NCBI GenBank assembly: GCA_963713605.1
Contig: CAVQMO010000003.1
Span: 352,001-416,000 of the forward strand
Direction: 5' to 3'
Source of the DNA: an uncultured Nitrososphaerales archaeon
GTDB taxonomy: Archaea > Thermoproteota > Nitrososphaeria > Nitrososphaerales > Nitrososphaeraceae
DNA: 64,000 bases
Shown here: piece by piece, positions 2,479 through 7,457 of the stretch
How positions within the stretch are numbered: position 1 is the first letter of the stretch
How the letters are laid out: every line of letters starts with the position of its first letter
Position numbers and translations under genes: made by a program
Notes under the pieces: generated by a model
Told to the model about the DNA's origin: nothing
The model's input: the letters and a program-made list of their open reading frames with translations, nothing else
Databases searched by the model: none

Positions 2479-3841
2479 TCAAAAATACTTCCTTGGATCG
2501 GCTATTTTTCCTTCGATCGCAGATGCTGCTACCGTTGCAGGAGATGCTAGATATACTTTAGATGACAGTGCACCCATTCTGCCGATAAAATTCCTTGAGG
2601 ATGAAGATATACAGATCTCATTTTCTCCTAACGCACCAAGATGAGTACCAACACATGCGCCACATGTAGCATTGGTAAACACAGCTCCTGATTGTAGATA
2701 AATTTCTACATAGCCACGCTTAATTGCATCTTCGTATACTTTGACAGATGCAGGAGTAACTACGCATCGTGTATTTTTGTGAATTTTTCTGCCCTTTAAT
2801 ATGTGTGCTGCAATTTCAAGGTCTTCTATTCTTCCGTTTGTAGAAGAACCTATAAACGCTTGATCAATATCTATATTTGATAATTCTTCAACTGAATGTA
2901 CCTTGTCAATATTATCCGGACCTGAAACTTTCGGATCAATCTTGTTACATTCTATCTCAAATTCATCTTCGTACCTGGCAGAAGTACCCGCTTTTATTTT
3001 GATATTTTTGAGATCGTTATTTGTTCTTGCATTCTCTTCTAGATATTTAGTTGTAACCTGATCAGTGGGAAATACAGATATTTTTGCACCGCACTCCATT
3101 GAAGCATTGCTGATACATGCTCTAGAGTCCATAGTAAATTCTTTCCTGACATTTTCATTTGAAAATTTCCATTCTAGTGCCTTATAATTTGCACCATCTT
3201 CGCCTACCTTTCCGATATAATCTAAAATTAGATCTCGTACAAACACTCCTTTCCCAAAAATCCCTGATAAATTAATCTTTATAGTATCTGGTACTTTCAA
3301 CCATAATTGACCTGTTGCCCAGACAGGCAGCAATTTCTGTACTTCCAATTCCAGTAGCAAATGCAGACAGACATCCGGCTTGACAGGTATGTGAATCTGC
3401 TCCCAATATCATCATACCAGGAACAGCAAGATATTCGAGAATATATTGATGCGAGATTGAGCCCTCGACTAAAAGGCAGTTGTATTTAGAGACAAAATCT
3501 CTCATCATAGCATGCATATTGGCCACTTTCTCATCTGCTGCTGGAAATGTATGATCTATAACTAGCAAAACCTTCGAAGGATCGTAGGGCTTGTTGATAC
3601 CCATTTCTGCAAATGAACGTATTGCCAAAGGGCCTGTACTATCTTGTGCCATAGCGAGATCTACATTCACAATTACAATATCACCGGGCATGGACACTGA
3701 TTTTGTTTCGACATTCTTTATGCTTATCAGCTTTTCAGCAATGGTGAGTGAACTATCATTGAGAATTGTTTTGGTACGAGATGTGTCCTGACTTTGATGC
3801 TGCTGTCGTCGTTGAAGCGAAGCACGTGTCATGTTTTGCAT
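2479..3841 (-). CDS. leuC: Isopropylmalate dehydratase/homoaconitase-family large subunit (LeuC/HacA-like), frameshifted near 3330
   Basis: Two track ORFs join: TIAEKL, DH, GADSHTC, FATGIGSTE / IGSSTNGR, CGACVG, RNFIGRMG, YLASPATVAASAIEGKIADPR. Confidence 0.85.
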
Positions 3842-4506: not shown

Positions 4507-5474
4507 ATCTATGCAACCTTTGGCTATTTCAGGTATGCATCCCCAAGATACCATACTTTATTATGATATTAGGTCCTGATGTTATAGTTTGCCTCATTGT
4601 CGGAGATAAGAAAAGGTGATTCCTTGTTGCTTCTGCAAGAGGTACAGACGAAAATTCGTCTTTTTCGCATTTACCGTTGGTCTAGGGCAGAGGATATTTG
4701 CACATAGACTTTTCCTGTACTCTACTGAGGGGTGTTATTAAGCTATCAGCACCTGGACTTTGACTGGTAGGGTGCTTATTGATTTTTCTTTAAAACCTAT
4801 GAGGAACGGCCTTCCCGTTATTCCAGGGCTCGCTAAAATGCACAGCAATATCGTGCGCTGTCAGATTTCAATTCATTTGATTATTCAGTCCTTATAAATT
4901 AAAAGCCAAAATGCCTGTTTCTATTTTACTCACCAATCTCAATTTCCTTATCACAGAATGGATAACCTCTACTCAAATTATAATCTCTTACCTGATTATT
5001 CTTTCCTCTAATTGGCAGTACTGCCCGCTTCCGTTGGAAATGATGTTATAGCCCCCTTCAATCATATTTCTCATTGCTGCTGGCATTGGTATTGTATATT
5101 AGCGAGGATCTTTCCTAAGAGATGTTTGTAGGTATACAAACATAAATTCTTTGCATAACCTACAATAGTTGTAGTGGTTAAGTAAAGGCAGTGCCAATAA
5201 TACTGATTTTTTGTATTCCAAACTTTTAAGTTACTAAACAGGGGTTAATAATGTCCCCAACTCAAATATGATAAAATATCACTAGTGCAGCCCTTAGACT
5301 TAACGTATAACTATTTCCTCTTGAAGTAACATATGATTATTATATAGTCTAAGTAAGCTATAAGCTTTTCATATAGATATAATGTACAATTCTGCTACTT
5401 TTGTTACCAATTTCACTCCATAAATTGGACATGTAACCTAGCAAATTTATATACAAAGAATTGAGCTAATAGTT

Positions 5475-6245
5475 GTGGCTCAATATGCTGTTCAACCAAG
5501 AAAGGTGTTCCCTGTTAAGACATTACATTATGGCAATGAAGCTCGTAATAAAGAGGGACTTAAAGGAAGACTAATCATTGTCGAGGGAATAGACGGATCC
5601 GGCAAGTCGACCCAGCTTCATCTCTTAGAACAATGGTTACGATCTAAGAATATGGCCGTATTCTTAACGGAGTGGAATTCATCCGATATGGTCAAACAGA
5701 TTACCTCCAAAGGGAAAAAGAAAGGCAAGCTTACCCCAACAACGTTCAGCCTATTGCATGCTACAGACTTCGCAGATAGGTATGAGAGAAAGATTCTCCC
5801 TCTTCTTCGAGCAGGTTATATCGTCTTGGCCGATCGATACATTTACACAGCATTTGCAAGGGATACCGTGCGAGGGTGTAGTAGAAGTTGGGTGCACAAA
5901 GTCTATAGCTACGCCTTAAAGCCAGATCTTACATTTTATTTTAAAGTCCGTATTGATGTGGCATTTGAAAGAATTCTCGTTGGACGCCCGAAGCTGAAAT
6001 TCTATGAAGCAGGGATGGATTTGAACCTCAGTAACGATCCATATGAAAGCTATCGGATATTTCAACAGCGAATAATAGATGAATACGATGCTATGGCCCA
6101 GGATGAAGGGTTCGCTGTTATCGATGGAACATCTGCCATTGAGGAGCAACAGGCCCAAGTACGTGATTTAGTCAAGGGTGTAATCCCAAAAAACCAACGT
6201 AAGTTTCTTGAATCAGAGCCTATCAAGTTAGGAGTGGCGGCATGA
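5475..6245 (+). CDS. Thymidylate kinase-like P-loop kinase, subunit A
   Basis: IIVEGIDGSGKST Walker A; GYIVLADRY; KPDLTFY. Confidence 0.85.
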   Translation: MAQYAVQPRKVFPVKTLHYGNEARNKEGLKGRLIIVEGIDGSGKSTQLHLLEQWLRSKNMAVFLTEWNSSDMVKQITSKGKKKGKLTPTTFSLLHATDFADRYERKILPLLRAGYIVLADRYIYTAFARDTVRGCSRSWVHKVYSYALKPDLTFYFKVRIDVAFERILVGRPKLKFYEAGMDLNLSNDPYESYRIFQQRIIDEYDAMAQDEGFAVIDGTSAIEEQQAQVRDLVKGVIPKNQRKFLESEPIKLGVAA

Positions 6246-7078
6246 TAAGGAGGAGACGAATGCGAAAAGGGGCTTCAAAGACCATGACGACGCAAAGACC
6301 AAGAAATCGACCAGTCAACGAAGAATTGGATAACGCCTATAATTTGCAAATTAGTAGGAAAGAAACTCGCCGGTCCCGGTTACCACTGTATTATGGAGAT
6401 GGCATTAGATACCTTCAGAACGATACTCCACTCAGTGGAAAGCTTATTGTTATAGAAGGACCAGACGCATCAGGCAGGACCAGTCAGATTTCCATAATAC
6501 AACCATGGTTAGAAGCTGATGGACATGCTGTTGTTACCACCGGGTTACGAAGGTCTGAATTGGTCGGAGAGGGGATATTAGAAGCGAAAAGAAATTTCGT
6601 ACTGGGGAGGAGAACGCTCAGCCTATTCTATGCAGCAGACTTTGCAGATCAACTTGAAAACAAGATTATACCCGCATTGAGAGCAGGATACATCGTTCTT
6701 GCTGATAGATATATTTTTACGTTAATGGCTCGAGATGCGGTAAGAAGGATTAGCAGGACATGGTCACATGCATTATATGGGTTTGCGTTAAAACCTGATC
6801 TAGTCTTCTATCTAGATGTGGATCCTAATGAGTTAATTCATAGAGGCTTTCAAAAAAATTTTTCTCTAGATTACTACGAATCCGGTGCAGATTTGGGACT
6901 CTCAGATGATATGTTTGAGTCCTTTATTAAGTATCAAAACATGTTGGCAAAGGAATTCCACAGAATGCAGAAGAAATACGGATTAATTCCTATAGACGGA
7001 AACCGTACGATTGAAGAAATTAACACTGATCTCCTAAAACGCATTGGCGATTTTCTTAATACAGCCGCTGTTAGATAA
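6242..7078 (+). CDS. Thymidylate kinase-like P-loop kinase, subunit B (degenerate Walker A)
   Basis: IVIEGPDASGRTS; GYIVLADRY; KPDLVFYLD. ATGA overlap with the upstream paralogue. Confidence 0.85.
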   Translation: MIRRRRMRKGASKTMTTQRPRNRPVNEELDNAYNLQISRKETRRSRLPLYYGDGIRYLQNDTPLSGKLIVIEGPDASGRTSQISIIQPWLEADGHAVVTTGLRRSELVGEGILEAKRNFVLGRRTLSLFYAADFADQLENKIIPALRAGYIVLADRYIFTLMARDAVRRISRTWSHALYGFALKPDLVFYLDVDPNELIHRGFQKNFSLDYYESGADLGLSDDMFESFIKYQNMLAKEFHRMQKKYGLIPIDGNRTIEEINTDLLKRIGDFLNTAAVR

Positions 7079-7205
7079 GGAGCGATAGTATTACTAATGC
7101 CTATTACAGTTCTAGATTTGATACTTGATTTAACCTCTGTTATCAGGAACATGAGCTGAAGCTATTTGATGTCCATATTAGATTGAGAGTATCAAACGAT
7201 CGTCA

Positions 7206-7457
7206 TCATCGCCGTCGGAGTATTTCGTCTACGAAACACAATTTCCAATTCTCTCCAGGTTCGTAGGATCAATGACCGGATGTCCAGTTGAATGAAAATG
7301 CTTTGTTCCGTGTCTATTTTTGGAAGAGTCACAACATCCAATATGACCACAGCTTAAACATAACCTCAAGGCTACCCAATTTTTCACATTCCTCACAACC
7401 ATTCGTTCTTGCCTCTGTTTCAGGGTTTGCCTGTTTCAGATGACTGCACACTCTCAT
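7206..7457 (-). pseudogene. UBP-type zinc finger protein, two frameshifts
   Basis: Manual translation: MRVCSHL...GCEECEK/WVALRLCLSCGHIGCCDSSKNRHGTKHFHSTGHPVI/SYEPGENWKLCFVDE. Confidence 0.75.

Follow-up and report, generated by a model that had tools for sequence, protein, structure and literature searches.

Two overlapping genes of a Nitrososphaeraceae-type archaeon, located in a 64,000-nucleotide stretch of DNA (hereafter the window), very probably encode the catalytic and the regulatory subunit, cPPK3 and rPPK3, of a family-3 polyphosphate kinase. We refer to the two subunits as A and B. The family was described by Hofmann et al. (J Biol Chem 2026, PMC12995831; preprint bioRxiv 10.1101/2024.08.28.610084), who report a heteromeric polyphosphate kinase, PPK3 (here SaPPK3), made up of two annotated dTMP kinases of Sulfolobus acidocaldarius. 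According to that paper, Saci_2019 (cPPK3) is the catalytic subunit, makes polyphosphate (polyP) and lacks dTMP kinase activity, while Saci_2020 (rPPK3) is inactive alone and increases activity approximately 6-fold at a 1:1 ratio. The complex behaves as an alpha2beta2 tetramer in gel filtration, and its reaction is biased approximately 50-fold towards making ATP from polyP and ADP. PPK3 is regarded there as an independent exaptation of thymidylate kinase (TMK) that occurs mainly in Nitrososphaeraceae and Sulfolobaceae; among the matches listed in Data S1 of the paper, 7 of the 8 Nitrososphaeraceae rows contain PPK3. Both the family and its occurrence in Nitrososphaeraceae have thus been published before. 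Our literature searches found no PPK3 assay from Nitrososphaeria, from bacteria or from any other non-Sulfolobus source, and nothing relevant to a putative 'Tmk3/Tmk4 heterodimer', a lead that was dropped.

Results

The two genes are paralogues (43% identity over 211 aa, E 8e-58; about 40-43% across comparisons), and the ATGA overlap described in the initial annotation was borne out (Table 1). Script scoring of 80 related loci revealed a 4-nt overlap in 39 of 56 scored c-r junctions, the other 24 loci being left out for lack of an adjacent A or for a pattern miss. An alternative start of B, the ATG at 6260 behind AGGAGG, was rejected: it is absent from 6/6 closest loci, in which the ATG of the overlap is kept. 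Profile searches matched both products to PF02223 (A, 81.6 bits; B, 73.1 bits), and both exceeded the 83.25-bit cut-off of the dTMP kinase model TIGR00041 (92.5 and 87.1 bits, respectively). This model predates PPK3 and therefore, we infer, cannot separate PPK3 from dTMP kinase. Neither product matched PF03976 (PPK2) at E up to 0.1, and TIGR03708 gave a single P-loop-sized match (E 0.027).

All motifs named in the initial annotation were found as described. LTEWNSS in A and TTGLRRS in B stand in place of TREP, both subunits share (H/Y)A.DFAD (HATDFAD and YAADFAD), and B combines the Lys-to-Arg Walker A GPDASGRTS (R79) with a very basic N-terminal tail (14 K/R versus 4 D/E in residues 1-45). 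Two of these features call for caution. The absence of TREP is true for A and B but is not diagnostic alone, given that the two other TMKs of the genome read FDLP and MNFP at that position; and the lid (F/Y)YE.G.DL.LS is present (FYEAGMDLNLS and YYESGADLGLS) but loose in Sulfolobaceae-type subunits (EAGAD, SAGID).

Table 1. Positions of the gene pair and its features in the window.
Feature	Position	Strand	Description	Remark
TATA-like box TTTATATA	5446..5453	+	22-29 nt ahead of A start	
Subunit A gene	5475..6245	+	GTG start, 256 aa	cPPK3-type catalytic subunit by homology
Walker A of A, GIDGSGKS	5586..5609	+	K44 intact	Lys in 36/36 c-type rows
Candidate polyP cleft region of A	5715..5999	+	c-type conserved basic residues	From column tallies
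ATGA overlap	6242..6245	+	A stop codon / B start codon	
Subunit B gene	6242..7078	+	ATG start, 278 aa	rPPK3-type regulatory subunit by homology
Basic N-terminal tail of B	6242..6376	+	Residues 1-45	Lineage-limited length, weakly constrained
Walker A of B, GPDASGRTS	6458..6484	+	R79	GR[ST] in 80/80 related loci
DRY motif of B	6704..6712	+	R156 retained	Gly there in 14/14 f21 r-subunits (DGY)

The TTTATATA box, which we take to be an archaeal TATA box, is kept in 5/5 aligned relatives, one of which reads TTTAAATA; this conservation makes it probable that the pair has its own promoter at 5446-5453. A scan for sigma-70 promoters and for terminators, a method unsuited to archaea, remained at chance level (6 versus 7.5 and 1 versus 1.7, respectively). 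The upstream neighbours are aconitase-family leuC/leuD-like genes and the downstream neighbour encodes a matrixin-like protein, neither being phosphate-related. Among named relatives, the closest are records of Nitrososphaeraceae or Nitrososphaerales. A broken small Cys/His-rich gene (CxxC...CCDSSKNRHG.KH), presumably similar to a UBP-type zinc finger, lies on overlapping short ORFs at 7229-7457 of the window and has similar copies elsewhere on contig C3. The leuC gene of the window (2479-3841) is split in two; a ppx gene elsewhere in the genome (G000:C1:356100-357800; L093:6090-7780) is split over several frames, most same-genus genomes having it open (517-533 aa). Both splits probably stem from indel errors in this assembly.

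With A as the query, 401 genomes of the phylum were searched and 30 matched, including 2/2 of its own family, 12/56 of family f2, 14/15 of family f21 and one elsewhere. We take f21 to be the Sulfolobaceae, because one of its proteins (the c-subunit L096_c) is identical to the 2PLR chain over 213/213 residues, and because the f21 locus L102 has the order sixA-ppx-c-r-CHAD, with ppx, sixA and CHAD present in 14/14 f21 loci. A is 52.9% identical to L096_c, and B is only 31-35% identical to the f21 r-subunits. 2PLR/5H70 was the best PDB match of both A (E 8.6e-68) and B (E 5.9e-41), every other TMK scoring 1e-13 or weaker. A tree was calculated from 75 rows, i.e. the window pair, 14 f21 pairs, 21 nitrososphaerial pairs (16 hand-picked from the 80 loci, plus L110-L114) and 3 TMKs. 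In this quick search, which gave SH-aLRT support only, had three outgroup rows and raised long-branch warnings, the 72 c/r rows were split from the 3 TMK rows (SH-aLRT 99), and B and its relatives grouped with the f21 r-subunits (SH-aLRT 97). An A-type gene was present in 76/80 loci fetched with B. A tblastn search of plasmids with B gave no match at 1e-20.

The placement in the clade of Saci_2019/2020 (PMC12995831) with the matching subunit types, the separate TMKs of the genome and the ppx, sixA and CHAD genes beside homologues (see below) support what had been proposed from the letters of the window, namely that a catalytic and a pseudo-kinase TMK-like protein together make up a polyphosphate kinase. 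Two parts of that proposal have to be revised in the light of the same paper: kinship with PPK2 gives way to a separate exaptation of TMK, and the heterodimer to the alpha2beta2 tetramer published for SaPPK3.

Next we compared the residues that distinguish the two subunit types. The basic residues of the cleft region of A are K81-K83, H95, R102, R121 (DRY), R129, R133, K157, R166, R171 and K175. H95, R102 and K175 are invariant in 36/36 c rows and are Tyr, Gln and Asp in 36/36 r rows, including B (Y130, Q137 and D210); K157, R171 and K83 follow the same c-versus-r trend in the alignment columns. This pattern, which is independent of the tree, fits the statement in PMC12995831 that a basic polyP cleft is found on c and is missing from r, and by analogy with the legends of its Figs S14-S16 the basic region of A may form such a cleft.

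The basic tail of B was considered as a polyP channel, but the conserved basic residues sit on A instead. The segment preceding the P-loop strand of B comprises 63-74 residues in the 6 closest loci and 26-45 in most others, and its dN/dS of 0.39-0.82 (a noisy estimate from 37-45 codons) compares with 0.05-0.075 in the core of B. Poorly conserved, weakly constrained and absent from the f21 r-subunit L102_r, the tail was rejected as a polyP channel of the family and probably does not serve as its polyP site.

The genome encodes two further TMKs with higher PF02223 scores (C10:459854-460399, 130.8 bits; C3:453717-454259, 97.5 bits), whose activity we assume. Together with the position of A and B outside the TMK branch, their presence upholds the view that the pair is not the housekeeping Tmk, for which a search for a separate tmk gene had been recommended. 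These two proteins (L001:1327-2076 and L002:1471-2073) are 41% identical to each other, read NRY for DRY, and L002 has a very long branch. It is extremely improbable that A, be it alone or together with B, acts as an atypical ATP:dTMP kinase, the function given by automatic annotation. The TIGR00041 cut-off is passed and databases name such proteins 'dTMP kinase', but A and B no longer have the dTMP-binding EP motif (TEW and TGL, respectively, versus EEP in L109 and FP/LP in L001/L002), and the two other TMKs of the genome are approximately 21% identical to A. The homologue from S. tokodaii was initially described as an unusual TMK; according to bioRxiv 10.1101/2024.08.28.610084, however, that report followed ADP formation only, not dTDP, and no dTDP was obtained from Saci_2019 by 31P NMR (PMC12995831).

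B carries the r-type replacements, and its Walker A arginine is shared by 10/14 f21 r-subunits, the other 4 retaining Lys. The DRX arginine shows a different distribution: DR[YF] is found in 79/80 loci related to B, one being unread. Among the best 150 distant representatives, which were ranked by likeness to B and thus form a biased sample for these counts, we recorded 103 r-type domains; the DRX arginine is kept in 92/93 readable ones, and the Walker A lysine is replaced by arginine in 65/70 with a readable Walker A. The Lys-to-Arg change in Walker A therefore appears to be a broader mark of r-subunits than loss of the DRX arginine. PMC12995831 attributes the inactivity of rPPK3 to this loss, an account that agrees with 14/14 f21 r-subunits but does not cover most r-subunits examined here. 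The first residues of L102_r are those specified by the saci_2020 primer of PMC12995831 (read by eye), and L102_r is one of the 4 f21 r-subunits with a Walker A lysine, so that Saci_2020, the assayed subunit, probably shows the reverse of the pattern in B. The main text of PMC12995831 does not contain 'Walker A' and has 'lysine' only in a reference, while the alignment in its Fig. S14 may show the change. Since the paper counts Nitrososphaeraceae pairs as PPK3, replacement of the DRX arginine is a trait of a subtype and not a criterion for the family.

Retention of R156 (DRX), R164, R168 and the lid R201 raises the question whether B is a second catalytic subunit with a phosphotransfer of its own, which would be partly compatible with a PPK3 assignment. 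This is improbable, as the Walker A lysine is absent and the c-specific basic residues are replaced (Y130, Q137, D192, N206 and D210), even though B is 40-43% identical to A versus 26-28% between f21 c and r, and even though the set ranked by likeness to B so consistently keeps the DRX arginine. A Lys-to-Arg change in Walker A usually cripples P-loop catalysis.

Fusion proteins among the same 150 representatives revealed both domain types in single chains. P0122 (460 aa) is a c-r fusion, with four full-length 460-aa cluster members, named from Alicyclobacillaceae. P0127, P0150, P0168 and P0210 (620-700 aa; four separate 50% clusters, with P0150 named from Ignavibacteria) combine two TMK-like domains, the first cPPK3-like, with a Ppx/GppA domain III / HD domain; the term 'HD domain' is absent from the main text of PMC12995831. 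The c-r and c-r-HD/Ppx fusions support the partnership of A and B and its link to polyP, and the natural c-r fusions lend indirect support to an alpha2beta2 heteromer. Further single chains with two PPK3-like domains are P0095, P0184 and P0270, of which P0095 is a singleton and possibly a frameshift artefact. P0217, P0229, P0256 and P0268 are long proteins that join a cPPK3-like domain to DUF2252/APH-like, MFS or inorganic pyrophosphatase domains.

Finally, we located other polyP genes in the genome and around homologous pairs. Of the kinases proposed for a search, PPK2 is present in one copy, so that PPK3 is not the sole candidate kinase, and PPK1 was not found in this genome, which is 87% complete. 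Elsewhere in the genome, a PPX gene with an adjacent SixA-like gene lies beside pst/phoU-like genes, and a CHAD gene occurs with two SixA-like genes and a pyrophosphatase. The proposed co-occurrence of TMK-like pairs with ppx, CHAD and sixA holds for homologues and at the level of the whole genome, but not next to the pair itself. Besides the f21 loci, 67/74 more distant loci carry ppx, sixA or CHAD within the fetched flank, the remaining 7 being 1.8-6.6 kb long; in contrast, none of these genes was found beside the pair in the window, in any of the 6 closest loci (83-86% identity, 2.8-12.8 kb), or within approximately 19 kb upstream or 20 kb downstream on the same-genus contig G410:C176. In this lineage, the pair has accordingly separated from the polyP operon. 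Two Nitrososphaeraceae loci (L068, L075) show the rearranged order r - sixA - ppx - c.

Comparison with the 6 closest loci yielded dN/dS values of 0.027-0.058 for A and 0.050-0.075 for the core of B, indicating that both are under purifying selection; decay of the pair after its exit from the operon was ruled out by these low values. A PPK3 by descent whose job changed after operon exit, through another nucleotide acceptor or redundancy with PPK2, would be in keeping with the lack of ppx, sixA and CHAD in the closest loci and in approximately 40 kb of G410:C176, and with the presence of PPK2 in 12/13 same-family relatives with a PPK3 match. However, every c-type invariant basic residue is kept in A, dN/dS (0.03-0.075) reveals no relaxation, PPX, SixA and CHAD are still encoded elsewhere in the genome, and PPK2 and PPK3 occur together in 3 of the 8 Nitrososphaeraceae rows among the matches listed in Data S1 of PMC12995831. 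We thus consider such a change of job very improbable.

An internally deleted duplicate of gene B is located at G000:C1:27395-27625 (L092:15396-15625, minus strand). It consists of 24 nt equal to window 6345-6368, a few bases, and a 196-nt copy of window 6885-7080 with 91% identity. Downstream, the remnant has the flank seen after B in close relatives, and the window copy of B retains the ancestral flank upstream, at a distance of about 5.6 kb. This division of the flanks suggests a duplication at a rearrangement, followed by decay of one copy of B.

Discussion

Assignment of A and B to PPK3 corrects a systematic mis-annotation, in that two 'dTMP kinases' are very probably a polyphosphate kinase. 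The two genes are probably co-transcribed from their own promoter and, being translationally coupled, should yield 1:1 amounts of the subunits. By analogy with SaPPK3, these would assemble as alpha2beta2. B would be the oligomerising and activating core that stabilises A, while A would bind ADP/ATP at the P-loop and polyP in a basic cleft replacing the dTMP pocket. The predicted reaction, polyP(n) + ADP -> polyP(n-1) + ATP, is reversible: at low energy charge it would form ATP and thereby buffer it, and at a high ATP/ADP ratio it would synthesise polyP. Activity, direction, stoichiometry and the inactivity of B are here carried over from one thermophilic Sulfolobus enzyme. The pair also points to an energy-buffering role of polyP in ammonia-oxidising archaea of soils.

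With the family already described, the residual points are the combination in B of a DRX arginine with a Walker A arginine, and the lineage-wide stand-alone location of the pair. Because B retains the arginines of DRX and lid and differs just in having arginine for the Walker A lysine, we tentatively raise the possibility, in our view the less likely one, that outside the Sulfolobaceae the r-subunit is a nucleotide-binding sensor rather than a dead scaffold. In that case, B could bind ATP/ADP but not turn it over, and would make the direction of the polyP reaction of A depend on the energy charge. If so, the sole assayed PPK3 would be an atypical, more degenerate member, and the stand-alone pair, away from a Pho/ppx cluster and accompanied by PPK2, would offer a clean mesophilic test system.

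Canonical thymidylate kinases (PF02223, TIGR00041; including L001 and L002) share with A and B the fold family, the Walker A and the DRX layout. They are 21-24% identical to A and B, form a separate branch, and differ from both in keeping the Pro of the EP/FP motif and in lacking the extended lid. PPK2 (PF03976), especially the two-domain form with an inactive domain, is likewise a P-loop polyP kinase built from an active and an inactive module, but according to PMC12995831 it has a separate origin, and its ADP and polyP sites are switched relative to PPK3.

The S. tokodaii protein STK_15430 (2PLR/4NZY/4RZX/5H70), deposited as a thymidylate kinase and re-read in PMC12995831 as a cPPK3 homologue, is 53% identical to A and has the motifs LTEWNSS, KKK, HATDF.DR and DRY in common with it, but lacks the 28-residue N-terminal extension of A. 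In the Sulfolobaceae-type rPPK3 (Saci_2020/STK_15420) the DRX arginine is replaced, whereas B has DRY and hence falls outside this subtype. Compared with the r-subunit of SaPPK3, B is further set apart by its Walker A arginine, its 45-residue basic tail and a YYG.G motif before the P-loop domain, and A and B resemble each other more (about 40% identity) than f21 c and r do (26-28%). Unlike SaPPK3, the pair adjoins no sixA, ppx or CHAD gene, and its genome also encodes PPK2. In its essential layout it nevertheless corresponds to SaPPK3 (Saci_2019/2020): both consist of two adjacent TMK-fold paralogues of the same clade, c followed by r, with the same c-specific basic residues and r-specific replacements, and with a separate housekeeping TMK in either genome.
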